Part shown: positions 7,817-52,553 of the stretch, one piece after another
Layout: every line of letters starts with the position of its first letter
Numbering within the stretch: the stretch's first letter is position 1
Origin: Giardia intestinalis
Taxonomy: Eukaryota
Assembly (NCBI GenBank): GCA_000002435.2
Contig: CM018790.1
Reading direction: 5' to 3' (one strand)
DNA length: 64,000 nt
Made by a program: the position numbers and the translations under genes
Notes under the pieces: model-generated
Databases searched by the model: none
Told to the model about the DNA's origin: nothing
The model's input: the letters and a program-made list of their open reading frames with translations, nothing else

Positions 7817-10645
7817 ATGGGCATAGATCTGCTTGATAAATACTACTTCAGTGCTACTCTCCTGTCCAGGTGTCCATACGGTGATCTTTATGTTGCAAAT
7901 TCTAGACGTACACGTCTAAACGTTATTGCACGCGTAATCCACCTTGAATTTATAGAATCAACGGTTATGAAGCAGCTAAAAGATGCATATGAGCAAACAA
8001 AGCGCATCGACCACGCTAATATATTTTTATACACGGCTTTCTATCTGGACGAGAATACCATCATTCTCGAGGCCGATACCGATCAACAGACGGTTGTAGA
8101 CGATCTGGCCATAAGAAAGGACCTGGGAACATCGTACACCACTGACGAGCTGTTTTACTTTGCGTATCAGATTGCCGATGCCCTTTACCATATACATTGC
8201 AAGAGCGTCTACGAGGGCCTTCTGTTTTCTGTCAGAGCTGATAGCGTTGTCATAAAGGGAAGCCCTGTGAACCTTATGGACATGAAGGCTAAGTTGAGTA
8301 TATTCACGGCCAAGTGGCCAGCCCAAAATCAACCTACCACGGCAAGGTTTGAGACTCGCCTAGCGGTGTCCGATATCTTTGAGTTCTCAAAGATGTCTTT
8401 TGAGCAGCATGCCCTTTACAACATTACCATGCTTGGGCATCTACTCCTGGAGATGGCCCTTATGAGGCCTCTGGAAAAGGGAACTGCGAACTCAGTATGT
8501 GCAGAAAATGAAGACTTAATTATTAGCACCCACAACACTACCCTTTTAGACCTAATACGATTCTGCCTAAATTCCACCCAATCTCGGCGGACCATCATAA
8601 TTGACATCAAAGACCTTGCAGCATTTGGTCTGGGATTACGGTATGCAGATCAGGAATTCCGTTTCTATAGCTCTCGAGAGAAGGCGTCTACCGTTGACAA
8701 GCTAATAAAGCAGCTCCAGGCGGAGAAGAAGTTTCTCAGCTCAATTAGAGCGCGGGATATTATCATGCAAGCACTCAGAATGGCCACGATGGCATATGAC
8801 AAGGGCTTGGGGCTCAATTATTACGCAGAGGATGTCAGCATAGTTAAGGACACTATTACCATATACCCTGATGCAAGTGTAGACGGGCACATATATGATC
8901 TCCTGAGGGACATGGCGAAGGTGATCGAGCCAGGATTCTTCGCCCAAGAGTTGAGCAGGCTTACTAATGTGAAGGTGGTTCCATCTCTGCACGATGCTGT
9001 AGCAACACTGGAGCCCTTGCTAGCCAAGATAGGAACTAACCAAATGGTCAAGCTTACTGCAATGGAGCTAGTTCTGAGCGAGCTAGCCAGCAAGATCCCG
9101 GAAGATAGCAACAGCTTTACCATCCTGTATGCTCAGCTGTCCGACCAAGGTTTTAGCATCGCCGAAGCAAACAACATTATCTCGATGCTTCCCCAACTTG
9201 TCCACAGACCAATTCTTCTATCTGTCTTTATGCGATGCTGCATTGAAAAGTCGATCTCCCTAAAGGTGCCCTTTCGCCTCGGCAATGTTCAGCCAACCAT
9301 GTCCAAGTTGATGACGGCGTTGTTAAAGGGCGGCCATGGCGTAACATCCTTGAAAGATTACTTGTGCGATCTTGGGCAGCAATGTCTCGCTCCGATCTGC
9401 TTGCTAGATCGCAATAGTTGCAAACTGTTTTGCACTCACCTTACTGCACTTATGGTGGCAGCATGGTATAACAAGCTGGGAGCTATACGCCTGTTATTAG
9501 CAGAGCTAGGGTACTGCACAGACAACCAGATGACTGCGCTTATGTTTGCTTCTGTTGCTGGAAGTACTGAGTCGGTCCCCTTTTTGACAATGGAAGCCCA
9601 ACACAGGAATTCGCTTGGTCAAACAGCTCTGATGCTTGCTGCCATACGTGGTCATATGAACGTGGCCAAAATACTAGCGCCCCTAGAGGCCGGGATACAG
9701 GACTGCCGGGGAAGAACTGCCCTCATGTATGCAGTGCAGCAGGACAATCCAAAGATGGTGCAGCTCTTGTTAGAGTATGAAAGTGGATACCAAGACAGTG
9801 ATGGCAATACAGCTCTGATGTATGCGATTTATCGCAACTCCCTAATATATACAGAGCTTCTATTTCGTTACGAATCAGCAAAACAAACAAAAGATAACAT
9901 GACCGCACTTCTGTTCGCCATTAGAGGCAACAAGCCCGACCTAATACAGCTACTACTTCCCATGGAGGTATCTCTAACCACGACGACTGGAGAAACGGTC
10001 TTAATGTATGCAGCTCAAGCTGGGAACGAGCAACTTGTTCGTCAGTTGATAAACCTATATCCTAAACTTGCGCTGAACCGACAGGATGGCACAGGATGGA
10101 CTGCTCTAATGAGGGCAGCCCAGATGGGCTATGAGAATATTGTAAAACTGCTTCTACCACATGAGGGTGGTCGACAAACCAACGATGGCACCACAGCACT
10201 TATGATTGCCACCAAAAACCATAGTAACAACATAGTTCTTGTCCTTCGAAAAGAGGAACGGAGGCTTACAGACAAAAATGGAGATACAGCACTAATACAT
10301 GCCGCTAGAAACGGAAACATAAATGCCATTCGCTTGCTAAAGAGTTACGAGGCTGGTCTTCTGAACAATGACGGGTACACTGCTCTGATGGTAGCAGTCA
10401 AACAGGGGTATGTTGATCTTGCAGATGAATTGTTCTTACCGGAATATAAAGTACGTGCATACTCTGGCCTGAGTGCTCTTGGTGTAGCGCATGCAACAAG
10501 GAATCGCGCCATATTAGAACTATTTGCCAAGAAGATGGAAGAGCATTGTTCTTTAAACCCAAAGCACAACCAGGAGATGGAGCTAACTTGGTCACCAATT
10601 CACTATGCTACCCCCTTCACAGCCGTGAATACAGAGCCGCAATGA
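7817..10645 (+). CDS. NEK-family pseudokinase domain plus C-terminal ankyrin repeats (Giardia 'Protein 21.1'-like)
   Basis: The N-terminal region is kinase-like but has no GxGxxG, HRD or DFG motif. The C-terminal half carries more than 10 ankyrin repeats with TALMxAA/NxxG units (TALMFASVAGS, TALMLAAIRGH, TALMYAVQQDN and others). ATG at 7817. Confidence 0.75.
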   Translation: MGIDLLDKYYFSATLLSRCPYGDLYVANSRRTRLNVIARVIHLEFIESTVMKQLKDAYEQTKRIDHANIFLYTAFYLDENTIILEADTDQQTVVDDLAIRKDLGTSYTTDELFYFAYQIADALYHIHCKSVYEGLLFSVRADSVVIKGSPVNLMDMKAKLSIFTAKWPAQNQPTTARFETRLAVSDIFEFSKMSFEQHALYNITMLGHLLLEMALMRPLEKGTANSVCAENEDLIISTHNTTLLDLIRFCLNSTQSRRTIIIDIKDLAAFGLGLRYADQEFRFYSSREKASTVDKLIKQLQAEKKFLSSIRARDIIMQALRMATMAYDKGLGLNYYAEDVSIVKDTITIYPDASVDGHIYDLLRDMAKVIEPGFFAQELSRLTNVKVVPSLHDAVATLEPLLAKIGTNQMVKLTAMELVLSELASKIPEDSNSFTILYAQLSDQGFSIAEANNIISMLPQLVHRPILLSVFMRCCIEKSISLKVPFRLGNVQPTMSKLMTALLKGGHGVTSLKDYLCDLGQQCLAPICLLDRNSCKLFCTHLTALMVAAWYNKLGAIRLLLAELGYCTDNQMTALMFASVAGSTESVPFLTMEAQHRNSLGQTALMLAAIRGHMNVAKILAPLEAGIQDCRGRTALMYAVQQDNPKMVQLLLEYESGYQDSDGNTALMYAIYRNSLIYTELLFRYESAKQTKDNMTALLFAIRGNKPDLIQLLLPMEVSLTTTTGETVLMYAAQAGNEQLVRQLINLYPKLALNRQDGTGWTALMRAAQMGYENIVKLLLPHEGGRQTNDGTTALMIATKNHSNNIVLVLRKEERRLTDKNGDTALIHAARNGNINAIRLLKSYEAGLLNNDGYTALMVAVKQGYVDLADELFLPEYKVRAYSGLSALGVAHATRNRAILELFAKKMEEHCSLNPKHNQEMELTWSPIHYATPFTAVNTEPQ

Positions 10646-11634
10646 TACGGGCATCGATCGTTGCCATTAACAATGTTACACAGCAGGCAGGTGCTATGGA
10701 TCATGTGGGCTTTATGACACTTGAGCTGTGCAACAGAATATCGGGGATCAGAGAGTGGCAGTTGACACAGCACGCAAAGGTCGTCTGAAGCTGCACAGGG
10801 TGTTCCACGGCGGTGACACGTGTCGCACTTTCGGCAGTGTTCCCAGCCGTACTCGGTAGTGAAGACCATGCACTTGGAGCACCCATGGCGAAACAATAAC
10901 CCTCCACACCCTGTACATGGGACCTCGTCTTTATCAGTTTCACAGTTATGGATAGAGTGGTCCAAGTGACAGTGCATGCACTCAATGGTGTCTACTTTGG
11001 TCCAATCAACAGGGTCAATTATCTGGTTATCTAGAAGCACCGTCTCGTAGCAAGCCTTGCAGGACACTTTGGTTGATGATTCAAATCCAAGGGAGGAGTT
11101 TAACCCCTCCACTCTTAGAAGCACACCTGTCATACAGTGATCGCACCCTTGGGTATATCCCATGTAGAGTAGCAAAAACGACGGATTGCCTTCTATGTAG
11201 CTACGCCTTAGCTGTCTGGGATCATTGCACGATTCCAAATGGTTCGAGAGAACGTCCCAAAAGCTCCTCTGAGTTACCTTATCAGCTACGTCACCTGGCA
11301 GAGCGTAAATGACTAGCCCGTGCAGGTAAGTCGAAGCAATGTCTCGCAGCTGCGGCTCGATGATAAAGTATATGTGGGTATCGAGATGCTTGATGCTTTC
11401 AGCAGGCTCGTCATACTGTAAGTGCATAGCCTTCAGAACTGTGCACACACTTGGAAAATGCTTCGTAGAAACCTCTTCAGAAGTAAATGAAACTTCTGTC
11501 ATGCATGCCTCAAAAGATGGGACACTGGCCTGTGCTGCCCGAAACACCCGCTCCCCAAGGGCCTTGTCAACAAACTGCCCCGGCCACAGAAGGTATCCGA
11601 GTGTGCTTTCTTGATACTTGAACAGGTGCTGCAT
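10603..11634 (-). CDS. Cys/His-rich zinc-finger protein, truncated paralog of the CHY/RING (Pirh2-like) gene at 17666-19192
   Basis: C-terminus reads CTGCGGLLFRHGCSKC...EHCRKCDTCH...CVLCQLPL...LKCHKAHMIHSTCLLC...CPYHCG. This parallels the CTCHY plus RING-H2 portion of the downstream paralog. ATG at 11634. Its 3' end overlaps the previous gene by 43 nt. Confidence 0.5.
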   Translation of the reverse strand: MQHLFKYQESTLGYLLWPGQFVDKALGERVFRAAQASVPSFEACMTEVSFTSEEVSTKHFPSVCTVLKAMHLQYDEPAESIKHLDTHIYFIIEPQLRDIASTYLHGLVIYALPGDVADKVTQRSFWDVLSNHLESCNDPRQLRRSYIEGNPSFLLLYMGYTQGCDHCMTGVLLRVEGLNSSLGFESSTKVSCKACYETVLLDNQIIDPVDWTKVDTIECMHCHLDHSIHNCETDKDEVPCTGCGGLLFRHGCSKCMVFTTEYGWEHCRKCDTCHRRGTPCAASDDLCVLCQLPLSDPRYSVAQLKCHKAHMIHSTCLLCNIVNGNDRCPYHCGSVFTAVKGVA

Positions 11635-11654: not shown

Positions 11655-14465
11655 TTACCAGCCGCCGTAGCCCCCGCCAGACGTATTGTCGTACCCACCA
11701 TAACCGCCGGAGGTGTTGTCGTAACCGCCGTACCCACCGGTCGCCCCGGAATCGTAGCCACCGGTTGTCCCAGAGTCATAACCGCCATAGTTCCCGTAGC
11801 CACCATAGCCGCCAGCTCCACTATCGTAGCCTCCGCCGTAGCCAGTATTCTGCGCATTGTATCCGCCGTACCCGTCGTTGTTCTGGCCCCATGCGTTGTA
11901 TCCTGTACCCTCAACCCCCGTGTTATCAACATGGCCTTGCGTGACCTCACCATAACCGCCGGCTGCTTGGGGTGCTGCTTGAGGAATGTGAGGCTGCTGC
12001 TCTGGCATCATTTGCTGTTGCTGCTGTTGCATAGGCTGCTGGTACTGTTGCTGCATTGGTTGCTGCATCTGGTTCTGCTGAACTTGCGGCTGCTGTGCTG
12101 CAGCTTGTGTCTGGGCAGCCGGGTTTGTCGGCGGCTTGAAATTCTGAACCCGAGAATATGCGTCTTTATCTACAAGATTGAAGCATTCGCTGCACGTCCT
12201 GCGGATCTGCTCAAGATCCTGTGCTGTCTCGAGGCCAGGATGATTGATGCCCTTCAGCAGCGCCGGGAGAAACAGCATAGATATCGACTTAGCTGTGCAT
12301 CGCGTGTAGACCTTTTGGGTGAATTCAGCGAAGTATACGACGGCCTTTGGACTCTTGATGATGGGGTCTATCATTCCGTAGATGGCTGGAAGAACTGTTT
12401 CTGCAATATCGTTATCTTGAAGATATGCAATGATGACTGCAAGACATCGGAGACAGGACCCCATCATGGCGTCCGTAGAGGACCCACCCATGAGCCCGAT
12501 GATTTTTGGAGTCAGGGACTTAACAAACGGCTGGGTATACCTGTCAGTGAAGGTCGATATAGTATTGTCCTGCTTCTCTGGGGCTTGCTGAGCCGCCGTA
12601 CCAGCCATCAACGACTCCCTAGAATGGTCCATCATCCAGCACGTGACGTCACCAATGAACGGAGCACACGCAGCAATTGCAGCCAGAGCCTTCTCCTGAA
12701 TCATAGCATTCTTGCTCGAGAGGCAGGAAACCAAAAAGTTAAGATAGCTATAATGCGAGCGAGCCCCAACCTTCTTGTTCGTGAAGAAGGAGGCATACTC
12801 CAGAAGCACGAAGATCACCGTGGTGATTACGCTCTCCTGGTCTGTGTTTATCTGCTTATCGAAGTTGGGAATAAACTTAGTGCGCTCCTTCGTTGACTTA
12901 TCCATGGGTATATCCATATACGGTGTCTGGTACATGAACAGCCTTCCATAGACTTCGATACCCGATGTCCACGCTTGCTGCGTGCTGTGGGTCCCAGGAA
13001 ACTTGGAGCGGTGGTCCGTAAGTGTACATGCAAGAACAATGGGTTCCAGCAGGATGTACAGCTGGTCAGCAGGGATCTCTAACATGTAGGAGTACTGGAT
13101 CAGAAGAGGCACGGTGTATCGATAAATGTCTCTACGAGACAACATGCTAACGATACGAGGCCATATAGCCGCCATGGTGAGATCGACACTCAACATCCGC
13201 TTTTCCAGGCATATGGGGAGCATCTTGGTCAGGAACTGAACCGTTCGTTCCATGATGTTTGAGTCTCCGCTATTCGCTGGGGTCGATGCAGTAAACACCA
13301 TCTCCTTCTTGAGCTCCATGATCTCGTTGGCCACGCGAGCGACGGAGTTCTTGGACAGGAATTCTGTATACATTTGACCGCAATCGCACTCCTCACGAGA
13401 GGCAGCCCACAGGCTTGGCATCGCCGCTTCCATCTGGGAAAGGCAGACCTGCTCGGTGGCATTAATAGTCTGTGTCATGCTATACCATTTCGGAACGGTT
13501 GCCGCATTCTGGGCTGCCGCCGCGGGGCTGATGACGTTTGTAGTGGTCGGTAAACTTGCGCCGAACATCTTGGCACTCTCCTCGCAAAGCTCCTCGGTGC
13601 TCATATGCTGCATGCAGGGGGATGAGCTGCTGTACTTGCACGGGCGTCCACCAAAGATGGTGTAAATGCACGAGGCAAGCTGGAAGGCGTCGGAAACCTT
13701 GCTCGCCTTTTTGTTCTGGAGCATGGACGGACTCATAAAGTGTGCACACGGCCGAGTGAGGGCGCCGGAGTCAGAAGAGAATTCAAAGTTGATCCCCCCT
13801 GGAAGGCAACACGAAAAGCCGACCAGGCGCCACTCCCCGCGCGGAGTGATGGCTATGTTCGCAGGGGTAAGGTTGCCGAAGACGTATCCGTCGTTCTGGA
13901 GAATGCTCAGAGAGCGGAGCAGTGTCATGTACCCATAGGCAATGGAGTCTGGCTGAACATACTGCAGTAGATTTGTGAATGGGTTCGCAGAATAGATGCG
14001 AGGATTAGCGTTGGCAAGCATTTCGTGGTCTGCCTTACGCTTAATGACGTTCAGGCATGTGTGGCCGAACAGCTTATAAAGGGAAGAAAGGGTGCCAACC
14101 AGCGGCTCGGTGACATAGTAGAGGCAATTATTTTCTTCTTGGAGCTGCTCTAGGATGATCAGTATTTCCTTCGCATTCTTCCCGGGAACTGCCGCGTCTT
14201 TGTTGATGAAACTGAAGAACTGCTTAGAGAGGTTGTCTGCCTTCCCGAAGACAAACTTCTCGACGAGCTTCTTCTCTATAACAAAGACCGTCCCGAAGGC
14301 ATTGGACTTCTTGTTCCTTCCAGAGTACATATGCCAGATACCAAAGGTACCTCCAAACCCCAATTGCTTCTCGAGCTCCCACTCCTTGAGTTTAATCTTC
14401 GGCGCATTGGGCGTTGCGCGGGGCTCTATGCGCGATTTGAAGTAGGCTGGAGCTTGTTGCTGCAT
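11655..14465 (-). CDS. SCY1-like pseudokinase with HEAT repeats and a C-terminal polyQ plus Gly/Tyr-rich low-complexity tail
   Basis: N-terminus has LGFGGTFGIWHMYSG...AFGTVFVIEKK...ITPRGEWRLVGFSCCL, compare SCYL1 VSIFVYDVK...AGEWKLGGLDY. A helical-repeat body follows. C-terminus is a Q-rich run followed by (GGYGGYDNTS)-type repeats. ATG at 14465. Confidence 0.7.
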   Translation of the reverse strand: MQQQAPAYFKSRIEPRATPNAPKIKLKEWELEKQLGFGGTFGIWHMYSGRNKKSNAFGTVFVIEKKLVEKFVFGKADNLSKQFFSFINKDAAVPGKNAKEILIILEQLQEENNCLYYVTEPLVGTLSSLYKLFGHTCLNVIKRKADHEMLANANPRIYSANPFTNLLQYVQPDSIAYGYMTLLRSLSILQNDGYVFGNLTPANIAITPRGEWRLVGFSCCLPGGINFEFSSDSGALTRPCAHFMSPSMLQNKKASKVSDAFQLASCIYTIFGGRPCKYSSSSPCMQHMSTEELCEESAKMFGASLPTTTNVISPAAAAQNAATVPKWYSMTQTINATEQVCLSQMEAAMPSLWAASREECDCGQMYTEFLSKNSVARVANEIMELKKEMVFTASTPANSGDSNIMERTVQFLTKMLPICLEKRMLSVDLTMAAIWPRIVSMLSRRDIYRYTVPLLIQYSYMLEIPADQLYILLEPIVLACTLTDHRSKFPGTHSTQQAWTSGIEVYGRLFMYQTPYMDIPMDKSTKERTKFIPNFDKQINTDQESVITTVIFVLLEYASFFTNKKVGARSHYSYLNFLVSCLSSKNAMIQEKALAAIAACAPFIGDVTCWMMDHSRESLMAGTAAQQAPEKQDNTISTFTDRYTQPFVKSLTPKIIGLMGGSSTDAMMGSCLRCLAVIIAYLQDNDIAETVLPAIYGMIDPIIKSPKAVVYFAEFTQKVYTRCTAKSISMLFLPALLKGINHPGLETAQDLEQIRRTCSECFNLVDKDAYSRVQNFKPPTNPAAQTQAAAQQPQVQQNQMQQPMQQQYQQPMQQQQQQMMPEQQPHIPQAAPQAAGGYGEVTQGHVDNTGVEGTGYNAWGQNNDGYGGYNAQNTGYGGGYDSGAGGYGGYGNYGGYDSGTTGGYDSGATGGYGGYDNTSGGYGGYDNTSGGGYGGW
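11658..11960 (-). repeat. imperfect tandem codon repeats encoding (G-G-Y-[G/D]-[S/N/T]) units (prion-like GY-rich tail of the SCY1-like gene)
   Basis: Plus strand shows repeated gtagccaccg/gtaaccgcc/gtacccacc units. The protein reads GYGGYNAQNTGYGGGYDSGAGGYGGYGNYGGYDSGTTGGYDSGATGGYGGYDNTSGGYGGYDNTSGGGYGGW. Confidence 0.8.
11975..12125 (-). repeat. CAG/CAA-rich (polyQ-encoding) tract
   Basis: Plus strand is tgctgctgttgc-rich. The protein reads QQPQVQQNQMQQPMQQQYQQPMQQQQQQMM. On the opposite strand it generates a spurious poly-Leu ORF (11931..12896). Confidence 0.8.
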
Positions 14466-14674
14466 GGGCCTTTTTTGATTCCGTTATTTTTTAAAGGGGC
14501 GACCGCAAAAAATGTGCCGTATCGGCCTCCTCCAAAGGTATATTACTGCTGCGGCGTGATTTAAGTACGCAGTCATCTTAGGCTGGGATTTACTAGGCTA
14601 CTTTATTGATAAAACGTGGCAGCAAAGACTGCATTCTACGAGTATTCAATCTACAAAAACTTTTCATGGAGATA

Positions 14675-16273
14675 TCAACTTTCTATGTCTTTCAAAATAC
14701 TTTCGAGATATTCTGAAAGTTTTTCAATGTCTTCCTTTTTGTGTTTTATTGTGACGGAAACACGAATTGTCTTATCATCAACAATGCCAACAAGGTACCG
14801 GTCACCGCTTCTGTGACAAAGAAGATTGTCTTGAATGGCTGCGCTTGTTATGGATTCCGGGAGCTGAATAAACACGGCAGGAAACCCTGGTATTCCGACA
14901 AACGGTATACCTGCAGAGAGAAGCATTTTGTGCAGGGTCAATGCGGATTCGTGAAGAGCCGGCAGAACGTTGGGTATTTGTCGCAGTGTGTACCTAGCAC
15001 ACTCGCAAAGACCTGGGGGTGCACTAGCGCTGAAGCAGTACCCAAGGCCCATGTTTCTCTGCTGTTCCACTAGATGCAGCGCGCCCGTACAAATGCCTCC
15101 CAGGCCGGAAAATGCATGCTCCAATGAGCTAGCGACAAGATCGAAGTGGTGATAACCCGTGGCATAGCCCATGTCACACCAGAACTCTGGAACCCCGCGC
15201 CCCTCTGAGCCCAGGACACCTAGTCCAAGACCTTCGTTGAGGAAGATCCTCACGTGGTTGGTTTCGCAAACAGACAAGATCTCGGGAAGGCACAATATCC
15301 CATCCTTAGTGATGGTGTCTGCCACCAGCCAGCAGGTGTTTTTGGCTTCTGCTGAAGCTGCTTTGAGAACAGGCTCTACATCCCTTCTGATTTTTCGTAG
15401 CTCTTTCTGTACTTCATCACTTGTTAAGTACTTACACATGGCGTTCTTCAAGCTGCTTGTGCATTCTTTGATGCTACCATCACTGATGTGGAGCTCGTCT
15501 GAGAGTTGTTGTAAGTTGAGGTACGGAAGGTGAAGCGTGACAACCTTCGCGCCACAAAGAGCCGCAGCCCTCGCTATCTCAAGGCTGTGGACCTCTGGAA
15601 TTATGAGAACATCTCCCTTGCCGCAGAGAATTGGTAAAGCAGACGGAATTACCACAGCTGCACTGGGATACAGAATCGCGGGTTGATTGAGAAAAGCAGT
15701 GAATTCGCGCTCAACCATGATGTGCGGCGTTAGCGTGCCGAAGAATCCTCGGGGGCCGCATGAGCCCACGCCATAACGCTCTATAGCTCCTAGCACGTGC
15801 TGCTGTGCTTCTGGATCTGTGGCGATGCATAGAAAGTCGGTTGTTGCGCAGTCTATCACGGACGTATTTACGTCTTCTTGTAGCTTCTTCTCGTCAGTAG
15901 AAGAGTAGTTGTCATTTTTAGGCCAGTCTGGAGGGGCCAGATAGAGCCTTGTGGCATCTCGTCGAATTACCACAATTGGCTTGTTGGGCTGAACCACCGA
16001 AGGGATGGGCTGAAGCCTTCGAGACTCCCTTGACTCTTTTCCATCAGTTGAGCCTTCGTGTATCTTCTGTTTGAGCCTTTTCTTACTTCCAGGGGATTCA
16101 GCTGATCTGCTCAGGAGCATCATTGCAATAGCTGTGCATATGGTAATTGTTAGCACAGGATAGGTGGCCATCTCCGGGCTTTTTTGTCCCATTAGCTGTA
16201 GACCGTACGACAAGCACAGCGGTAGATGTGCCCATTTGATCAAAAAACCGCCAAAAAAACTTAATCCCGACAT
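14675..16273 (-). CDS. serine palmitoyltransferase subunit 1 (LCB1/SPTLC1-like; class II aminotransferase lacking the PLP lysine)
   Basis: Matches SPTLC1 blocks: YGVGSCGPRGFFGT, RIFLNEGLGLGVLGSEGRGV, SSLEHAFSGLGGICTG (no Lys, as in LCB1), GLGYCFSASAPP. There is an N-terminal TM segment. Confidence 0.8.
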   Translation of the reverse strand: MSGLSFFGGFLIKWAHLPLCLSYGLQLMGQKSPEMATYPVLTITICTAIAMMLLSRSAESPGSKKRLKQKIHEGSTDGKESRESRRLQPIPSVVQPNKPIVVIRRDATRLYLAPPDWPKNDNYSSTDEKKLQEDVNTSVIDCATTDFLCIATDPEAQQHVLGAIERYGVGSCGPRGFFGTLTPHIMVEREFTAFLNQPAILYPSAAVVIPSALPILCGKGDVLIIPEVHSLEIARAAALCGAKVVTLHLPYLNLQQLSDELHISDGSIKECTSSLKNAMCKYLTSDEVQKELRKIRRDVEPVLKAASAEAKNTCWLVADTITKDGILCLPEILSVCETNHVRIFLNEGLGLGVLGSEGRGVPEFWCDMGYATGYHHFDLVASSLEHAFSGLGGICTGALHLVEQQRNMGLGYCFSASAPPGLCECARYTLRQIPNVLPALHESALTLHKMLLSAGIPFVGIPGFPAVFIQLPESITSAAIQDNLLCHRSGDRYLVGIVDDKTIRVSVTIKHKKEDIEKLSEYLESILKDIES

Positions 16274-16282
16274 TTAAATGTC
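16269..16282. promoter_or_regulatory. perfect 14-bp palindrome GACATTTAAATGTC containing both divergent start codons (LCB1 minus-strand ATG 16273..16271 and FHA ATG 16278..16280)
   Basis: Read directly: g a c a t t t a a a t g t c is its own reverse complement. The A/T-rich core TTTAAA sits between the two ATGs, consistent with Giardia-type initiator elements immediately at the start codon. Confidence 0.6.
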
Positions 16283-17597
16283 AGCGGAGAACGGCATCAC
16301 AGCCTGGGTTAATTCCCTACGGGAGTCGACTGAGAAGCGCTTTTTCTTAGGACACATTAAAGAGTCTGCTAATACTGACGCAGAATACGACAAGCCGGCA
16401 GCGTTCCGCGTCTGCCTCTTTGGTCGAGCGCACATGGCAGATATTCACCTGGCAGATTGCTATTGCTCCAGGCAGCATGCTCTCATCTATTTCAACGAGG
16501 GAACTCCCATGATAAGGGATCTAGACAGCCGAACAGGCACCACAGTCAACAACATCGTTCTTGTCGGGGGGAGGGATTATCCTCTCACGCATGGAGACAT
16601 CATCTCGGTCGTTGGCCAGAGGTTCGCTTTCATCTACGAAGAGGAGAAGCCACAGGAGCACGACGTCGACCGGAACCTTCCGGTTGTTTCTATGGCCACC
16701 CACTCGTGCCCGTACTGCCAAAAATTCATCCCTGAGTTCTCTGTCGAGCTCGAGGCCTTACAGCAGCAGACAGAGAAGGTTCTGAAGGAGCTGCTGGCGA
16801 TGGAGGTATCCTACAGAACCAGCAGAATTATAACCGAGAAGTTATTCGAAAAGATTGAGCTCGTCAAGCACCATCACGATGCATATCATCACGAGCTTCT
16901 CGTGGAGGCCAAGGAGCGGCGCATACACGAGCTGGAGGCCACAAGGGTGGCCGGGGCGAGCGTCGTAATGGGCCGCTCACGCATTGTCATGGACCCAGAT
17001 GAGGATGACGGCAACGACACAGACAGTCTGTCCAAAACTCACGATGATACAGAGCCCGAACTGAAGAGGCGAGGAAGCCTGAAGGTAGACGATCTGGCCG
17101 TTTCAAAGGCCGCTGAAAAGCAGAAAAAGAAGGTCGCCTTTCTCCAGAAGTCAGAGCACATAGGAGATACAGATAAGGATACAGATAAGAAATCGGGAAT
17201 ACTGAACAGCATTATGTCATCCGTAGCCTTCTGGAAGAAGCCTCTTCCTACTGACAAGAATAAGCAGCCAATAGCAAGCCAAGCAAGTCAAGAGAAGAGT
17301 GACAGTGACTATATAGACAGCCGGGGTGGTAATGATGATCAGAGTGATAGTTATAGCTATAGCTACAGCAGTACTGGCAACAGTGGTAATGGTGATGGCA
17401 ATAGCAGCAGCAGCGAAGATGAGAGCAGCAGCGATAGCGATGCTGGAGAGGAGCGCGTGGAACTGCGTTCTTACAACGGACCAAGCGAACCAAAGCCCGG
17501 GGCGAAGAACGAAGTGATCAAACCTAAGGGAAAGGCCTACGGCAAGGACACTCCTGCTCCTCCACGATATGAGTTCGATGATGAAAGTGAGGACTGA
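16278..17597 (+). CDS. FHA-domain protein with coiled-coil and an acidic Ser/Asp-rich C-terminal tail
   Basis: FHA signature at residues about 45-120: FRVCLFGR...ADIHLADCYCSRQHALIYF...DLDSRTGTTVNNIVL...LTHGDIISVV. ATG at 16278, 4 bp from the divergent LCB1 start. Confidence 0.7.
   Translation: MSAENGITAWVNSLRESTEKRFFLGHIKESANTDAEYDKPAAFRVCLFGRAHMADIHLADCYCSRQHALIYFNEGTPMIRDLDSRTGTTVNNIVLVGGRDYPLTHGDIISVVGQRFAFIYEEEKPQEHDVDRNLPVVSMATHSCPYCQKFIPEFSVELEALQQQTEKVLKELLAMEVSYRTSRIITEKLFEKIELVKHHHDAYHHELLVEAKERRIHELEATRVAGASVVMGRSRIVMDPDEDDGNDTDSLSKTHDDTEPELKRRGSLKVDDLAVSKAAEKQKKKVAFLQKSEHIGDTDKDTDKKSGILNSIMSSVAFWKKPLPTDKNKQPIASQASQEKSDSDYIDSRGGNDDQSDSYSYSYSSTGNSGNGDGNSSSSEDESSSDSDAGEERVELRSYNGPSEPKPGAKNEVIKPKGKAYGKDTPAPPRYEFDDESED
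17296..17450 (+). repeat. AGC/AGT/GAT microsatellite-like tract encoding a Ser/Asp/Gly-rich acidic tail (SDSYSYSYSS...SSSSEDESSSDSD)
   Basis: agtgatagttatagctatagctacagcagtactggcaacagtggtaatggtgatggcaatagcagcagcagcgaagatgagagcagcagcgatagcgat. Spurious antisense ORFs 17217..17735 and 17248..17493 derive from it. Confidence 0.7.
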
Positions 17598-40062: not shown

Positions 40063-40533
40063 ATGAGCACACAGGACGCATGGCCTCCGGTCTACTACGA
40101 CTTTCGGCGTTACGGCCTTTCGTTCCATAAGATGAAGACGCCGCGCATAGAGCATCTGGTGGAGCTGTGTGACCACTACCTGGAATGTCTTAAGAGGTAT
40201 GAGGACACCTTTTCTCCCACCAGAACGCGTGCACAAGTGGCAGTTCGACAGACAATCAACGTAATACGTGGCATAGCGCTGCGGCTGATCTCTGTGTCTA
40301 AGACAGCCTCTCTACAGAACAGTGAGAAGTCCCAGGCCGACTATGAGCTTGAAGTGCTTCAAGCGGCAGATTTACCTACGGACCCTGAGCGTACGCCTGA
40401 GAGCATGAAGCAACAACTCCTCGACCTGGAGACGGCATACGTCCTTCGGCTTGACACTGTGGCCTCACTCAAAAGGCGCATAGCCATGCTTGAAGAGTCG
40501 CTGGATCCAGCAATAAGCAAGCACCTATTTTAG
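40063..40533 (+). CDS. hypothetical protein, 156 aa
   Basis: ATG at 40063 preceded by gatataaaataa. Its 3' end overlaps the convergent gene by 9 nt. No family recognised. Confidence 0.4.
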   Translation: MSTQDAWPPVYYDFRRYGLSFHKMKTPRIEHLVELCDHYLECLKRYEDTFSPTRTRAQVAVRQTINVIRGIALRLISVSKTASLQNSEKSQADYELEVLQAADLPTDPERTPESMKQQLLDLETAYVLRLDTVASLKRRIAMLEESLDPAISKHLF

Positions 40534-41886
40534 TGGGGCATAGGGCTTTATGTCTATCGTCTTATAGCGACGTATTAATTGCGCAACTTCATCGGGGTCA
40601 TCACCGTCTTTTTGGCTCTTCTTCTCCATCTCCGAATAATAATCTAGCCCTTCTAGTATTCGTCCTCGGCGGTCCATGTCTGCCAATAGCTGTGCAGGCT
40701 TGAGGTTAAACTTCTCAGGATTTGTCAGAAAAGGTGCACTTGCAGGTCTCGTGGCACGCTCGGGCATGCCGTGGTCACTTTTCTGTATAGTATGTGCGGT
40801 GTTCCTTATGGTAGCTGCGAGGTTAGGATCGTTCTTGAGGCGCTCCCGAGTGTCTGAAGCCAGGAGACTATGCAGATCCCTTTCTATGGCAGTGTCTGGG
40901 GCCTCCTTGCGCACAGAAGAGGTGTGGGGGATGCCGTGTCGACAGCAGTATATTAGCTCGTTTATTTTGAGATAAATGGTGTCATTGGGCTGAAGACGCA
41001 TGATCATGGCAAGCTTTTCTGCTTTGTAAGCATAAAGTTCTGCGTCCCGCTTGCAATTTGTAAATAACAAAACCCGTGATATCAAGTAGTATGTGTTCAG
41101 AAGCCATAACACACGCTCCTGCTGCTCCCAAGAAGGCTCCCCGCTGTCTGCTCGAGAAGCTTTTAGAAGCTGTCGATACACTCTGGCAGCCTTGTCTAGA
41201 AGGCCCAATGCCTTCGTAAAGGTTGCCCTGCTTCCATTGTCAGCACAAATCATACATTCTGCTAGCAGCACAGATGCTCGGGCATGGTCATCTGTTTCGG
41301 GAAAGCATGCTTCCAATCGCCGGTGAACAAATTTTGCATGTATGAGTGCCTCCACAGGCTTTCGAAGTTGGATGTAGCAGCACGACAGAGTGGTGTGAAG
41401 CCCCGCAAGAATAATACTCACATCCCTTGTGATGCTCGCCCGCTCCTCCTCGGATCCTGCTGTATATGTTATGGTAGTAGACATAGCATGCTGTACCCCC
41501 TTCTCTAGATGAGAGATGCCCTCTGAATAACTCCCCAGCTGCAAGTGGCACTTGCCGATACAATTAGCCAAAAACGCAGTTTGGAGTCGCGTTGTAGCGT
41601 TGAGTGTGCGTTGTAGAAGCCTTCGTGCAGTCATGTATTCGCCAAGACTCGCAGTCCACTGTTGCTGCCTGTACAGGATGCTTCCGTTCAGTGTATGTAA
41701 TGATGCCAGCAGCAAGACAGGACCGTTAGAATCTCTGCACTCATATGGATGGCCCCTGGCTCTGCCCGTGGGATGTAGCTCACTGCAGACCCTATAGGCT
41801 TCTTCTAGACCAGATTGCAAGCTTTTACTTGCGGCCTCGTAGTTCTCCTCCTTGGCTGCCAATAACGCCGATGCATACTCATCCAT
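40525..41886 (-). CDS. TPR-like helical repeat protein, 453 aa
   Basis: ATG at 41886. Repeated alpha-helical motifs with A/L/Y spacing typical of TPR (YKAEKLAMIMRLQPNDTIYLKINELIYCC...). Confidence 0.5.
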   Translation of the reverse strand: MDEYASALLAAKEENYEAASKSLQSGLEEAYRVCSELHPTGRARGHPYECRDSNGPVLLLASLHTLNGSILYRQQQWTASLGEYMTARRLLQRTLNATTRLQTAFLANCIGKCHLQLGSYSEGISHLEKGVQHAMSTTITYTAGSEEERASITRDVSIILAGLHTTLSCCYIQLRKPVEALIHAKFVHRRLEACFPETDDHARASVLLAECMICADNGSRATFTKALGLLDKAARVYRQLLKASRADSGEPSWEQQERVLWLLNTYYLISRVLLFTNCKRDAELYAYKAEKLAMIMRLQPNDTIYLKINELIYCCRHGIPHTSSVRKEAPDTAIERDLHSLLASDTRERLKNDPNLAATIRNTAHTIQKSDHGMPERATRPASAPFLTNPEKFNLKPAQLLADMDRRGRILEGLDYYSEMEKKSQKDGDDPDEVAQLIRRYKTIDIKPYAPLK

Positions 41887-48981: not shown

Positions 48982-49542
48982 ATGGACGTGAACACGCAGA
49001 CATGTGCCCACGCAATCCTCTTCTCGGATCTTGATGACCTGTTTTGGGAAACTGCCACCGAGAACGAGGCTATTTGTCAGACAGACCCTTTTCAGGTTGC
49101 GACCTGGACGGATACACACCTGGATACGGGTGCCAACACACCAGATCTATCTGCTAGTGCTCCACAGCTGCACCGCAACACCCGTAGTACGCCCCTGGAG
49201 CTCAGGTTGAAGGTCGTCCAGCTCCGAGAGCAGCAGTCCCTACCGTTCTCCACGATTTCCTCAATGTTGGCAATGCCTCTGACAACCGTGAAGTCCATAT
49301 GGCAGACGTACCGGCGGGAGGGGCGTGTGAAGCCACTCCAGGGAGGGGGCTGGAACCAGCGGCCAGACCGCATGACAGTCGACGCCCGGGTTTCGGGGCC
49401 TGTCCAAGCCCGGATTCTTGAGCTCCGCGCCGCGCACGCCTCGCTCCGGGCCATCTCGGACAGCGTCTGGCGCGAGTACGGGGTCCGGGTCTCGCGGTCG
49501 GCGTGCGGGGCGTTGCTCCAACGGCTGAAGACCCGTGAGTAA
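48982..49542 (+). mobile_element. truncated Tc1/mariner(IS630)-type transposase: N-terminal bipartite HTH (paired-like) DNA-binding domain only, no DDE domain
   Basis: 186-aa ORF. Residues about 68-186 (LELRLKVVQLREQQSLPFSTISSMLAMPLTTVKSIWQTYRREGRV...GGGWNQRPDRMTVDARVSGPVQARILELRAAHASLRAISDSVWREYGVRVSRSACGALLQRLK) align position-by-position with the Sleeping Beauty/Tc1 N-terminus (ISQDLRKKIVDLHKSGSSLGAISKRLKVPRSSVQTIVRKYKHHGTT...SGRRRYLSPRDERTLVRKVQINPRTTAKDLVKMLEETGTKVSISTVKRVLYRHNL). It ends abruptly after the DBD. Local GC is 65-70% against about 49% background. Confidence 0.5.
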
Positions 49543-51763
49543 ACACACGGAAAATAGAGATAGGAAATCTATCGCCTGGTGTGGGCGACGGGCGCGCTCG
49601 CGTGGTGTAGTTGGTTATCACATTCGTTTCACGTACGAAGGGTCTAGGGTTCGAATCCCTACGCGAGCATCTTCCGTTCACTCTCTCCACGAGCCGGAAC
49701 CCGACGAGGGATCGGGGCACGAACCTGTCCCGGTGCCACGGGGCCGGCGGGAGCTGGATGTTGTAGCGCGGGACGAACGCCGGCCCAGGGGGTTCCTGGT
49801 CCGGCACGGGGGTGTCGGCCTCGTTGGGGGCGCTGAGAAGGCTAATGCTGCTGTAGCTCTCCGCGCGGGCCAACGTCGTGTCGTGCTCGTCCCTATCATC
49901 GAAGAGCGTGGACCAGGGAATCTCGTCCGAGTTAGACGGGCTCGATCCTGCGGGAGCCGCAGACTTGGTCGCAGAAGACGCATCAGGCTTCACTTTCTTC
50001 AGAGAGGGCTCGCAATCTGTGCAGGCCTGCTCGCCTGCGGCAGTGTTAATAGGGTTGTAAGGCTTGTTGAATCGGAGGCTCGGCGGCAAAATGCAGCGCC
50101 TCTTTACCTGCAAAACCCTGGTTAACAGCCTGCTTAAGCAGCAATGCGTCGGTGTGGTGCTTTTGATGTAAGGGTTCAGAAGGGTGCGATATGCTGTGAT
50201 GCTAACGACACTTGTGTAAGAGGTGCCCAAGAGCCCTAACCAGGAAAGGTATGTTCGGGCATCGATACAGGCCGTTTCCTTGATCGGGTAGCCAGACGGT
50301 GCCGCACCCAGCAGCAAATTATCACTAGCCCTGCACGACGCCGTCAGTGTGGCGCTGACCTCTTGAACCGCGGGGTCACTTGCGTCGCAGATGACCTTCA
50401 CGCAGCCAGAAAGCTTTCCAGAGATGTAGGAGAGAGTCGCTAAGAAATCACCGGAAGAGCCCCCTATCAATATGGCATGCTGCAAAATAAAGCTGCACTT
50501 GTAGTTACGGGTGAAGTACATGGGATCGCGCTTGACGAAAAAGAGGTGGTAGAATTTGACATCGCTTCCGTCAGCGGCGTTGAGGCCAGACACCATATTT
50601 ATATTTCTTCTGTATGCATGAGAGAGCTCTGGCGTTCGCCGTATCTGGTCTGTCATGTAAGTGCAGTAGTCGTTTCGACAACCCTCAAAGAGGCTTGAAA
50701 AGGCCTCGGCAAACTCTCCGGTAAGATTGTGCAGGAAGCAGATGGCGTCGATGAGGCTCCAGCAGTAGTAGATTACGTCCCAGATTGGCGTTTTACAGCT
50801 GAAGAGGGAGCATTCATAAAAAGGTTTGTCTATGCCGGTGAAGGCAGGAAAATCGAAGGCATGAGCGGCAGCGGGCGGAGCAGACGCGCTCGTCCTCTCC
50901 TCGCCGGGCCGTTGCTGTATCGTGGGAAGCTTCGGCTCACTCCGTGTAAGGACCTCTGACCTGAGGCCATCTGATGGAGTGCCCGTCGGCTGTAAACGCG
51001 CTACTGCAAGCAGAGTGCTTCTGTTTTGCCTTCCAGAAAGCCTCTCTGAGGGGTCGGATTGCGCCACTACCCTGCTTTCCATAGTGAAGTTGTCCTTCAA
51101 GAATACGGAGCTTGCCGCAACAGGGGCTGTGGTAAGGCGAGGCAGCATCTCTGTAGATGCGGCATCAGTGGCATGCTTTGCTGGCCCGCATTTTGGCCTC
51201 TTCACCTTAGACCCGCTGGGGTCTTGTACAGGTCTGCTCTGGGAGACGACCGACTGCGTCTCTGTCTTGATGCTTCGAGTCTGTGCTTTTTGCGCCGATG
51301 CATGAGCCAGTCGCTCAGCAGAGTCCTTCGTTGAGGAGGATGTCTGCTCTCGAACCATTGGGGGAGAACTTGAGTGATTGGAAAGAGGCCTCGGAAGGCT
51401 TTGGGAGGAACATGCCCCTCCCTTGTGTCCACAGTATGTCTTTTCCGCGCCTTTTATGGTCTGGTCGACCACAAATAGGTCCTTTTGGGAAAGAAAATAC
51501 TCTGTCGCAGCAATGAGGAGGGGCAAAGCCTTGCTAAGCTTCCTGCCGTAGAGGGGGATGACGACCCGTCTGAATAGCAAATGCATAACATCCCCCAGGT
51601 CTGCGTCCGGATCTATACGGGGAATTTGAGGCCTGGGCGCAGGCTTCGCGCCAGGAGGCTCAGAAACAGCCTCCTTGGGTTCTTCAAAGGTTGTCTTGGT
51701 GATATGCTTGGCCTCAAGGTGTCTGATGAGGTTGAAGAAAGAGTTGATGGCATATATTAGCAT
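49202..51763 (-). CDS. hypothetical protein; 5' two-thirds coding-like, 3' about 250 codons (49202-49960) doubtful
   Basis: ATG at 51763. The N-terminal and central parts (FDFPAFTGIDKPFYEC...GTSYTSVVSITAYRTLLNPY...) have normal composition. The C-terminal part is R/P/G-rich, runs antisense through the tRNA (the ...RDSNPRPF... segment is the reverse translation of the tRNA T-arm) and through the transposase-like ORF. Confidence 0.4.
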   Translation of the reverse strand: MLIYAINSFFNLIRHLEAKHITKTTFEEPKEAVSEPPGAKPAPRPQIPRIDPDADLGDVMHLLFRRVVIPLYGRKLSKALPLLIAATEYFLSQKDLFVVDQTIKGAEKTYCGHKGGACSSQSLPRPLSNHSSSPPMVREQTSSSTKDSAERLAHASAQKAQTRSIKTETQSVVSQSRPVQDPSGSKVKRPKCGPAKHATDAASTEMLPRLTTAPVAASSVFLKDNFTMESRVVAQSDPSERLSGRQNRSTLLAVARLQPTGTPSDGLRSEVLTRSEPKLPTIQQRPGEERTSASAPPAAAHAFDFPAFTGIDKPFYECSLFSCKTPIWDVIYYCWSLIDAICFLHNLTGEFAEAFSSLFEGCRNDYCTYMTDQIRRTPELSHAYRRNINMVSGLNAADGSDVKFYHLFFVKRDPMYFTRNYKCSFILQHAILIGGSSGDFLATLSYISGKLSGCVKVICDASDPAVQEVSATLTASCRASDNLLLGAAPSGYPIKETACIDARTYLSWLGLLGTSYTSVVSITAYRTLLNPYIKSTTPTHCCLSRLLTRVLQVKRRCILPPSLRFNKPYNPINTAAGEQACTDCEPSLKKVKPDASSATKSAAPAGSSPSNSDEIPWSTLFDDRDEHDTTLARAESYSSISLLSAPNEADTPVPDQEPPGPAFVPRYNIQLPPAPWHRDRFVPRSLVGFRLVERVNGRCSRRDSNPRPFVRETNVITNYTTRARPSPTPGDRFPISIFRVFTHGSSAVGATPRTPTARPGPRTRARRCPRWPGARRARRGAQESGLGQAPKPGRRLSCGLAAGSSPLPGVASHAPPAGTSAIWTSRLSEALPTLRKSWRTVGTAALGAGRPST
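49596..49669 (+). tRNA. tRNA-Val (anticodon CAC)
   Basis: Manual cloverleaf: acceptor GCTCGCG/CGCGAGC (7 bp), D-arm GTGT-AGTTGGTTA-TCAC, anticodon stem TTCGT/ACGAA with loop TTCACGT (U33, anticodon CAC, G37), variable loop GGGTC, T-arm TAGGG-TTCGAAT-CCCTA, discriminator A. A-box TGGTGTAGTTGG and B-box GGTTCGAATCC are both present. Confidence 0.85.
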
Positions 51764-52553
51764 ATGAATTTTTTAGAAGGCGGATCAAAAATGTTCTCAC
51801 CACAACACATGCATGACGATAATCATTTTTATATTTTCATTTTTTAAGCAATGCAGATTGATACTGTAGATTACTGTATACCATTGAAGGTTGCTGTATG
51901 CTCTTCCATAATTGTTTAGACTGGATTATAGATGCGTTAAACGCACTAGGCAAGTAGTAGGCTCCCTTCGACTCTCAAGTAGGGGTCATTAGCAATCAGC
52001 GTCCACCCGTGATTCCTGCCCACTGGCCCCCCAAGTGTAACCACTGGCCCTGAAGCACGGATCTGCGGCCTGGCACGTTTCGGTTATCTGTGAGACGGGT
52101 TTTCGTCTGTCTATGAGCTGGGAATAATAAAGCTGTCAACGGCACGTGCTCTCAGATTAGAAGACACGCGATTGGGATTAGGAGGCATCGGCACCGGAGC
52201 CCCTGTGCAGAGAGCACAACTAAGGTGTCCACATCTCACATGACTGAGCAAACAAACTAGTAGGAACGGTGGATGGAACTAGAGCCTTTTCCTGATTGAC
52301 AGACACAAAAGGGGAGGCTGATCGATAAAGGCGTTTATGTCTGGATGTGATAGACCCATAGAGCTCAGGTTCTAGGCTGCATGCTTTGCTGTGATGTCCT
52401 TTTGCTGTGATTGCCTGCCTCGGGCCCGATCTGAGGCATCGATCCGCTAATTTGTACTAAATACACATTATTAATATTTTGTGAGAAATTACTCTTTGCT
52501 TCAAAATTAACAAAAAACACGACAAGAACCAGACATCCGTTAACAAAAAGCAA

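Follow-up and report, generated by a model that had tools for sequence, protein, structure and literature searches.

The stretch of DNA analysed here (the window: 64,000 nucleotides of contig CM018790.1, assembly GCA_000002435.2, Giardia intestinalis WB) carries two divergent open reading frames whose first ATG codons lie almost back to back. Specifically, the minus-strand ORF (14675-16273, 532 aa) has its first ATG at the CAT of 16271-16273, and the plus-strand ORF (16278-17597, 439 aa) begins at the ATG of 16278-16280. The two codons are 4 bp apart, with TTAA between them, and both fall inside GACATTTAAATGTC, a perfect 14-bp palindrome at 16269-16282. A previous sequence-only reading had described this palindrome, with CAT and ATG placed symmetrically about TTTAAA, and it is plainly seen in the sequence. 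The same reading had named the genes as a sphingolipid-synthesis LCB1 and an FHA-domain protein, and both identities are borne out by Pfam, homology and RefSeq records. The minus-strand product is an LCB1-type serine palmitoyltransferase 1 (RefSeq name Serine palmitoyltransferase 1, hereafter SPT1) with the Pfam domain Aminotran_1_2 (PF00155, 25.7 bits against a cut-off of 19.7). It has the class I/II aminotransferase fold, and its best homology is to SPT1/LCB1 proteins, with matches to those of animals, plants and algae at E values of about 1e-30 to 1e-38. The features considered below are the following.

14675-16171, minus strand: SPT1/LCB1 gene GL50803_23015, 498 aa with its start at Met35 (MATYPVLT...), XP_001707207.2 / KAE8302158.1
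16178-16186, minus strand: CAAAAAAGC block, probable SPT1 initiator, 7-15 nt upstream of the Met35 ATG, invariant in five assemblages
16195-16200, minus strand: conserved block TACAGC (CTACAG in WB only), from the assemblage comparison
16218-16227, minus strand: conserved block ATCTACCGCT, midway along the divergent spacer, invariant in five assemblages
16242-16259, plus strand: AAAAAACCGCCAAAAAAA block, candidate TATA-like upstream AT-rich element, 19-36 nt upstream of the FHA ATG
16172-16273, minus strand: the 34 extra codons of the former 532-aa SPT1 model, non-coding divergent promoter, in frame and open only in assemblage A
16269-16282, no strand: palindrome GACATTTAAATGTC, unchanged across five G. 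duodenalis assemblages and lacking in the G. muris clade
16272-16280, plus strand: core ATTTAAATG, similar to an initiator and directly adjoining the FHA start codon, a short form of ATTTTAAAATG and AATTTAAAATG
16278-17597, plus strand: gene for the FHA-domain protein XP_001707206.1, 439 aa, start codon in the palindrome

The SPT1 protein exists in two record versions, of 532 aa (.1) and 498 aa (.2), and the current RefSeq entry XP_001707207.2 begins at Met35, that is, at the CAT of 16169-16171, 102 bases inward of the palindromic ATG. Orthologues from five further lineages, including G. muris, start at or no more than 2 residues from the position of WB Met35, with the exception of an assemblage-B call (P0049), which uses a lineage-specific upstream Met aligned with WB Leu11. 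A conserved hydrophobic N-terminal segment begins immediately at Met35, and it is from this residue that the alignment is conserved, residues 1-34 being unmatched both in G. muris and in the more distant orthologues. On a 3.5-kb Logan contig (L006), the gene caller had picked Met51 for SPT1; the idea that this truncated call marks a transcript end was discarded, since the contig is genomic-like and identical to the window throughout the intergenic region. The most distant SPT1 relative (P0054, locus L007) has no FHA neighbour and is therefore uninformative on the promoter.

The fate of the palindromic ATG in other lineages points in the same direction. Assemblage B, an E-like lineage and two more assemblages have it either outside the SPT1 frame or followed by an in-frame TGA: non-multiple-of-3 indels and an in-frame stop are found across the extension region, the distances from the palindromic ATG to the conserved SPT1 start are 101, 103, 100 and 99 nt in L001 to L004, and the ORFs opened by this ATG on the SPT1 strand are dead ends of 10, 23, 68 and 27 codons, respectively. 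The extension is thus not conserved as coding sequence in the orthologues. Part of it, FFGGFL, is encoded by a T-tract/GGCGG block, and the residues specific to the long form in assemblage A include MSGLSFFGGFLIKWAHLPL..., MSGLSFFGGFLIK and WAHLPLCLSYGLQLMGQK. Among protein variants within assemblage A, residues 1-34 show 0 substitutions, where only about 0.5 would be expected, so that this comparison lacks the power to discriminate. From the comparison of these sequences, the minus-strand palindromic ATG is very probably not the SPT1 start, which most likely lies 102 bases further in, at Met35; a minor long isoform may occur in assemblage A, where a leftward transcript from the palindrome would encode the full 532 aa.

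With the start at Met35, the real start-to-start gap becomes 106 bp. The sequence-only reading had held that the two genes start 4 bp apart; this is true of the two longest ORFs, while for SPT1 the comparative evidence favours the downstream codon. The corresponding spacer, from the FHA ATG to the Met35-type ATG, measures 103-107 bp in the four other assemblages, against 75 bp for the clade of G. muris, and the divergent FHA/SPT1 order is retained in all of them. Other divergent gaps in the window span 78-790 bp, so that 4 bp is an outlier and 106 bp a typical value. Over the five assemblages the spacer is 57% invariant, and the invariant positions fall into discrete blocks, five of them within 106 bp.

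At the other end of the spacer, the FHA start inside the palindrome is solid, because residues 1-40 are near-identical across all assemblages and an in-frame TAA directly precedes the ATG in every lineage. The G. muris protein starts at the equivalent position (MTENDITAW). A search for Giardia relatives by metagenome scan with the FHA N-terminus as query found none.

The sequence abutting this start codon has the form of the AT-rich initiators of Giardia. In the TSS-seq data of Tolba et al. (2013, PMC3792122), ATTTTAAAATG and AATTTAAAATG are among the most frequent initiator variants, and the central A is the TSS. Of the published Giardia initiators, ATTTTAAAATG is the commonest; it is near-palindromic in its own right and lies against the start codon. 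The same paper also quotes the initiator AATTAAAAA of Holberton & Marshall (1995) and the gdh promoter initiator ATTTTAAAAT of Yee et al. (2000). ATTTAAATG equals ATTTTAAAATG minus one T and one A. The extended ACATTTAAATG has the make-up of the TSS-seq variants, which are AT-rich elements of about 8-11 nt with a T-run followed by an A-run, and differs by 2 mismatches from the listed variant AAATTAAAATG, a similarity reached by the top 3.5% or so of random 33-mers from the window. It directly abuts the FHA ATG at 16278 and so falls within the 0-20 nt or so that precede a genuine start codon. Giardia 5' UTRs are 1-14 nt long, and the ribosomes reportedly do not scan. By analogy with the published initiators, we predict that FHA transcription starts at the first A after the T-run (around 16276), which would give a leader of about 2 nt, probably within 1-3 nt. 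The near-zero 5' UTRs proposed by the sequence-only reading therefore remain probable for FHA on the basis of published Giardia biology; its companion proposal, that both genes issue from one initiator, is not supported.

Upstream of this core, the AAAAAACCGCCAAAAAAA block is invariant save for tract length in the assemblages compared, and its position fits the AT-rich element at about -30 of Giardia promoters (PMC1885649). Across the window, TTTTTKGCGG has just two occurrences, each of them in a promoter.

For SPT1, we infer a separate initiator from the CAAAAAAGC block, which is a weaker match than ATTTAAATG to the listed initiator variants. In G. muris, GAAAAAG stands directly before the SPT1 ATG, and the neighbouring SCY1 gene carries CAAAAAAGGCCCATG. 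Within the window, a run of at least five A residues in the 25 nt upstream is found at 8 of 28 gene starts, against 2.3% of all ATGs, and Met35 has one. Scored against the 17 initiator 11-mers that are most frequent among those published, the context of the palindromic ATG has 2 mismatches and the Met35 context 4, the mode of the background; we count this result against the explanation favoured below.

The palindrome itself is not rare. First-order Markov simulations of the window predict 3.96 palindromes of at least 14 bp and 15.96 of at least 12 bp, and 4 and 16, respectively, are observed; rarity was therefore dropped as an argument. In addition, a reverse ATG no more than 12 nt upstream of the initiation codon is present at 4 of the 28 gene starts in the window. 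What distinguishes the element is its conservation: the 14-bp core shows no change across the five G. duodenalis assemblages, in which just 15-29% of the 4-fold degenerate sites have stayed unchanged. The arm that is non-coding (ATGTC) is as invariant as the coding one, and a hypervariable spacer directly adjoins it. The invariance of the palindrome, non-coding arm included, marks it as a constrained promoter element. Beyond the core, WB has an 18-bp palindrome with one mismatched pair (CCGACATTTAAATGTCAG, 16267-16284), the perfect 18-bp version CTGACATTTAAATGTCAG occurs in L001 and L003, and the symmetry extends to 16 bp in L004; the positions at +/-8 are broken in WB and L002. Inverted TGAC cores are present in the outer arms in three assemblages.

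TGAC is the WRKY core, and CTACAG is the Myb2 site. Both leads were abandoned: the left TGAC is not intact in WB, while CTACAG is specific to WB and SPT1 is absent from the reported Myb2 targets.

All together, these data make it likely that the palindrome is the junction between the FHA core promoter and its start codon, that SPT1 is expressed from Met35, and that the two genes form an ordinary head-to-head pair with a 106-bp promoter. The palindrome centre ATTTAAAT would be a short version of the standard near-symmetric Giardia AT-rich initiator, FHA transcription starting at an A inside TTTAAA some 1-3 nt before the AUG at 16278. The right arm would then represent FHA codons 1-3 (ATG TCA G), and the left arm non-coding promoter DNA that mirrors it, hence the reverse ATG. 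In assemblage A, this reverse ATG would happen to share the SPT1 frame, with 34 codons free of stops, and this coincidence would have produced both the old 532-aa model and the apparent 4-bp gene spacing. SPT1 would start at 16171, served by its own conserved A-run CAAAAAAGC, so that one initiator would stand at each end of a block-wise conserved promoter common to both genes. Against this explanation, the constraint on the non-coding arm is greater than the published -5 to +5 initiator consensus alone needs.

The model of the sequence-only reading, in which SPT1 starts at the palindromic ATG and two leaderless-like mRNAs begin 4 bp apart from one mirror-image initiator, is scarcely credible. 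The 532-aa ORF is open in both A1 and A2 isolates and was adopted in the original 2007 annotation, but the current RefSeq model has abandoned it, four other assemblages have the ATG shifted out of frame or cut short by a stop, and residues 1-34, which lack an orthologue counterpart, are encoded by promoter-like T-tracts. Assemblage A alone has the reverse ATG in the SPT1 frame; a stretch of this kind would be open and in frame by chance with a probability of about 0.05 per lineage, so that one open frame in five lineages is unremarkable. Orthologue starts and frameshifts both indicate use of a downstream ATG for SPT1, an outcome that this model had itself named as contrary to it. A true bidirectional initiator could also operate without being the main SPT1 start, with the FHA mRNA running to the right and another capped transcript, its AUG about 2 nt from the cap, to the left; the leftward product would be the 532-aa SPT1 isoform in assemblage A and elsewhere a short, non-conserved uORF on a long-leader or sterile transcript, which could modulate the SPT1 promoter. 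The perfectly symmetric core and the invariant arm with its reverse ATG, set beside a hypervariable spacer, speak for it, as does the better match of the palindromic context than of Met35 to the published variants. Giardia promoters are reported to be inherently bidirectional, and TSS-seq revealed cases of adjacent genes with a symmetrical consensus between them in which a single nucleotide serves for initiation both ways (Tolba et al. 2013, PMC3792122). However, according to the same study, a symmetrical consensus is no predictor of bidirectional transcription, and here the two start codons do not sit beside the same initiator, as they do in its Fig. 6A-B cases. Moreover, an upstream A-run such as gene starts typically have is missing in the leftward direction, and the leftward ORF varies in frame, length and sequence, which indicates that it is under no selection at the protein level. 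Since Giardia ribosomes reportedly do not scan, a leftward transcript would be unable to express SPT1 in four of the five lineages. We regard this reading as unlikely, and more doubtful still the fuller version in which the 14-18-bp palindrome emits a leftward capped RNA (AUG about 2 nt from the cap) that yields the extended isoform in assemblage A and elsewhere, as a uORF or sterile transcript through the SPT1 promoter, tunes SPT1, for example by keeping it low in trophozoites until late encystation.

A further reading, which we hold to be improbable, gives the palindrome a role in FHA regulation separate from that of initiator, either as the site of a dimeric transcription factor or as a hairpin or cruciform. 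It would account for conservation that reaches +/-7 to 9 bp, past the published initiator consensus, and for the inverted TGAC cores of the outer arms. As a factor site, however, the palindrome is broken at +/-8 in two lineages, TGACA-N6-TGTCA has no second occurrence in the window, and no factor of this specificity was found in the literature searched. As a hairpin, its predicted RNA fold is weak (-3.9 kcal/mol for the WB sequence, with a z of about -1.7 in context, not significant), it would be missing from any mRNA starting inside the palindrome, and the invariant arms offer no compensatory changes for a test of pairing.

The favoured explanation, a head-to-head pair with an initiator at each end, agrees with known Giardia systems. 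The genes are divergent, their spacer is within the 250 bp set by Teodorovic et al., and an AT- or A-rich element stands at each start (ATTTAAATG for FHA, CAAAAAAGC for SPT1). Like ran/phd (153 bp; Teodorovic et al. 2007, PMC1885649), they belong to pairs about 100-150 bp apart in which each end has an AT-rich element and one start also has an AT-rich block some 30 bp upstream; the FHA/SPT1 pair, described here at the sequence level, differs in a spacer conserved in discrete blocks. With the typical AT-rich initiator the palindrome shares the T-run and A-run abutting the ATG, the near-symmetry and an implied leader of a few nucleotides. It differs in that both arms carry the symmetry 3-5 bp past the AT core (GAC/GTC, at most CTGAC/GTCAG), the outer non-coding arm is conserved across assemblages, and we infer the TSS from sequence. 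Lastly, 626 start codons of the WB annotation were revised by Xu et al. (2020) with the help of orthologue alignments and an A-rich start motif (PMC7000408), and SPT1 appears to be one of the over-extended 2007 first-ATG models thus corrected: its extension is absent in orthologues, the corrected start follows an A-rich stretch, and the protein shortens from 532 to 498 aa, with no material difference from that class.

In conclusion, Giardia is already known to have very short leaders, AT-rich initiators with symmetry and bidirectional promoters, and the locus opens no new question; its main value is the correction of a gene model. First-ATG ORFs and the 2007 WB models mislead here, suggesting a 4-bp intergenic distance, a common zero-length-leader initiator and a 34-residue hydrophobic SPT1 extension that could pass for a signal peptide when the enzyme is tagged or expressed. 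In addition, the locus offers a clean, well-conserved Giardia divergent promoter and a compact test case for core-promoter dissection.

The products of four neighbouring ORFs are identical to ATCC 50803 proteins, which identifies the window as Giardia intestinalis (duodenalis/lamblia) WB. The sequence-only reading had placed the starts of two divergent genes, coding for serine palmitoyltransferase 1 (SPT1) and an FHA-domain protein (FHA), 4 bp apart in a 14-bp palindrome acting as a bidirectional initiator. The geometry it described, a palindrome holding a minus-strand CAT and a plus-strand ATG, is found in the sequence, the two triplets flanking a TTAA spacer.

Elements of the palindrome
16269-16282: perfect palindrome GACATTTAAATGTC
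16271-16273, minus strand: CAT, first ATG of ORF 14675-16273 (532 aa, serine palmitoyltransferase 1, LCB1-type, GL50803_23015)
16278-16280, plus strand: ATG, start of ORF 16278-17597 (439-aa FHA-domain protein)

Statistically, a perfect palindrome of such length is ordinary in the window: first-order Markov simulations predict 3.96 that are 14 bp or longer and 15.96 that are 12 bp or longer, and the counts observed are 4 and 16. A reverse ATG lies no more than 12 nt upstream at 4 of the 28 gene starts in the window. On the minus strand, the first ATG of the gene-like ORF 49202-51763 sits in the small palindrome CATATG (51761-51766), with CTAAAAAATT before it; reverse ATGs beside start codons thus recur in the Giardia genome.

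The SPT1 RefSeq protein exists in two versions, XP_001707207.1 of 532 aa and XP_001707207.2 (KAE8302158.1) of 498 aa, the latter corresponding to a start at Met35 (CAT 16169-16171). A protein search brought in orthologues of four further G. duodenalis lineages, two lineages of the G. muris clade and one more distant diplomonad-like sequence, and their alignment is conserved from Met35 onward (M[AV][TI]YPVLT...), with the N-terminus of the G. muris proteins lying two residues ahead of Met35. One longer call, P0049 from assemblage B, has a lineage-specific upstream Met aligning with WB Leu11; at its locus (L001, 3001-3072) the called start is a lineage-specific ATG (MIRWAHLPL...), 24 codons ahead of the conserved Met. 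This call is probably another over-extended model running through the same conserved promoter DNA, whose conservation accounts for the amino-acid likeness of the extension to WB residues 11-34.

The DNA of the orthologous loci was also retrieved, and lineages were assigned by comparing the adjacent SCY1 kinase. With 98.5% identity to strain GS, L001 falls in assemblage B; L002 is nearest to P15 (assemblage E), and L003 and L004 are neither A, B nor E. All of these loci keep FHA and SPT1 divergent.

Spacing and frame between the palindromic ATG and the Met35-type ATG, on the SPT1 strand
WB (assemblage A): 102 nt; in frame, 532 codons to stop
L001 (assemblage B): 101 nt; frameshifted, 10 codons
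L002 (E-like): 103 nt; frameshifted, 23 codons
L003: 100 nt; frameshifted, 68 codons
L004: 99 nt; in frame, TGA met, 27 codons

Among these five lineages, the frame from the palindromic ATG into SPT1 is open only in assemblage A; as a non-coding stretch of this composition has a chance of about 5% of being open and in frame, one open lineage in five is unremarkable. The supposed extension is encoded by T-tract/GGCGG promoter-like DNA, FFGGFL being TTTTTTTGGCGGTTTTTT. The frameshift or stop in four lineages and the orthologue conservation from Met35 argue against the minus-strand palindromic ATG as the SPT1 start. The change from 532 to 498 aa fits the work of Xu et al. 2020 (PMC7000408), in which 626 WB start codons were adjusted from orthologue alignments and an A-rich start motif, and our independent analysis points to the same start.

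The plus-strand ATG at 16278, which the sequence-only reading took as the FHA start, has good support: FHA residues 1-40 are near-identical across five assemblages, an in-frame TAA directly precedes the ATG in each of them, and the G. muris protein starts at the equivalent position (MTENDITAW vs MSAENGITAW). In TSS-seq data (PMC3792122), the Giardia initiator is AT-rich and 'somewhat symmetrical', spanning -5 to +5 around a TSS at the central A, and its commonest exact variants, ATTTTAAAATG (21 cases) and AATTTAAAATG (16 cases), are near-palindromes continuing directly into the start codon. The palindrome core ATTTAAATG, equal to the published initiator minus one T and one A and at most 2 mismatches from a listed variant, belongs to this documented class. 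Giardia mRNA leaders measure 1-14 nt and the ribosome reportedly works without scanning (Li & Wang 2004, Adam 2001, as cited); these precedents would by analogy place the 5' end of the FHA mRNA near 16276 and leave it a leader of some 2 nt. FHA codons 1-3 make up the right arm of the palindrome, and the non-coding left arm carries a reverse ATG because it mirrors them.

With SPT1 starting at Met35, the two starts in WB are really 106 bp apart instead of the 4 bp claimed; their spacing is 103-107 bp in the other assemblages and falls to 75 bp in the G. muris clade. The window has seven other divergent gaps, of 78-790 bp (first-ATG models), beside which 4 bp would be an outlier and 106 bp is ordinary. 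Over five assemblages this spacer is 57% invariant, in discrete blocks; the invariant fraction of 4-fold degenerate sites is 15% in SPT1 and 29% in FHA.

Conserved blocks of the divergent spacer
TTAAATGTC: palindrome arm, 9/9 positions invariant, then immediately 8-10 nt hypervariable and indel-rich
TTTTTTGGCGG plus T-tract: invariant block, AAAAAACCGCCAAAAAAA when read along the FHA strand, lying 19-36 nt ahead of the FHA ATG
ATCTACCGCT: conserved block
TACAGC: conserved block
CAAAAAAGC: conserved block 7-15 nt before SPT1 Met35

The AAAAAACCGCCAAAAAAA block is a candidate for the Giardia TATA-like AT-rich element, as it sits where such an element is expected (PMC1885649). Perfect symmetry covers 14 bp in WB and L002, 16 bp in L004, and as much as 18 bp in L001 and L003. 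The palindrome is missing from the orthologous loci of the two G. muris-clade lineages, which keep the same layout, having T/A-tracts close to FHA and a GAAAAAG immediately upstream of the SPT1 ATG. A run of at least five A within 25 nt upstream occurs at 8 of 28 gene starts versus 2.3% of all ATG triplets (p = 1.6e-7), and is present at Met35 and absent at the palindromic ATG read towards SPT1. The WB spacer also contains CTACAG (16196-16201, minus strand), presumably a match to the Myb2-type C(T/A)ACAG site, its first C being WB-specific (others read TTACAG). SPT1 is reportedly up-regulated in late encystation (PMC4807828), and was not found among the Myb2 targets given in PMC9547401.

The palindrome might also fire a leftward transcript, yielding the 532-aa SPT1 form in assemblage A and a short non-conserved ORF elsewhere. 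Its context is closer than that of Met35 to the published top initiator variants (2 vs 4 mismatches, 4 being the background mode), and its outer non-coding arm is conserved beyond what the -5 to +5 consensus requires. Giardia promoters are reportedly inherently bidirectional (PMC1885649), and some symmetric initiators fire both ways from the same nucleotide by TSS-seq; the TSS-seq study also found that initiator symmetry does not predict bidirectionality (PMC3792122). We consider a leftward transcript unlikely. That the palindrome is a site for a dimeric factor is possible but unsupported. An RNA hairpin was rejected: with a predicted -3.9 kcal/mol for WB and an in-context z of about -1.7 it is weak, and it would be missing from any mRNA that starts inside the palindrome.

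Two copies of TTTTT[G/T]GCGG, a motif which we take to resemble an E2F-type site (TTTGGCGG), are present in the 64 kb, against 0.22 expected. Both copies are on the minus strand, one in the SCY1 promoter (14503-14512, 38-47 nt before the gene) and one in that of SPT1 (16248-16257, 77-86 nt before Met35), the two genes being minus-strand neighbours. Each copy is conserved in other assemblages; upstream of SCY1, L003 and L004 read TTTTTTTGGCGGTTT. The SCY1 promoter (14466-14520, minus strand) combines T-tract plus GCGG, a symmetric CCTTTAAAAAAT and CAAAAAAGGCCC directly before the ATG, the same kit as in the FHA/SPT1 spacer, conserved in five assemblages. The SCY1-like kinase ends (11655-12100, minus strand) in a long low-complexity Q-rich tail (…QQPMQQQYQQPMQQQQQQ…) followed by G/Y-rich GGYGGYDN repeats. 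Elsewhere, convergent ORFs 7817-10645 (plus) and 10603-11634 (minus), both long, share their last 43 bp (10603-10645), and ORFs 40063-40533 (plus) and 40525-41886 (minus) share 9 bp. Such overlaps fit the very compact genome of Giardia, where tail-to-tail transcripts reportedly overlap pervasively.

In conclusion, the observed geometry, conservation and reading frames lead us to propose that FHA and SPT1 form an ordinary head-to-head pair of the Giardia type, with a common 106-bp divergent promoter that has one initiator per end. ATTTAAATG would serve FHA and CAAAAAAGC would serve SPT1; a putative upstream element, an A-tract, and two more conserved candidate blocks lie between them. Every part of the locus falls within known kinds: the pair belongs with the documented short divergent promoters such as ran/phd (153 bp; PMC1885649), and the '4 bp apart' appearance with the overlong gene models of 2007, which RefSeq has since corrected. 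Only the symmetry conserved across assemblages beyond the AT core is mildly new. The block kit common to the SCY1 and FHA/SPT1 promoters suggests a recurrent core-promoter grammar.
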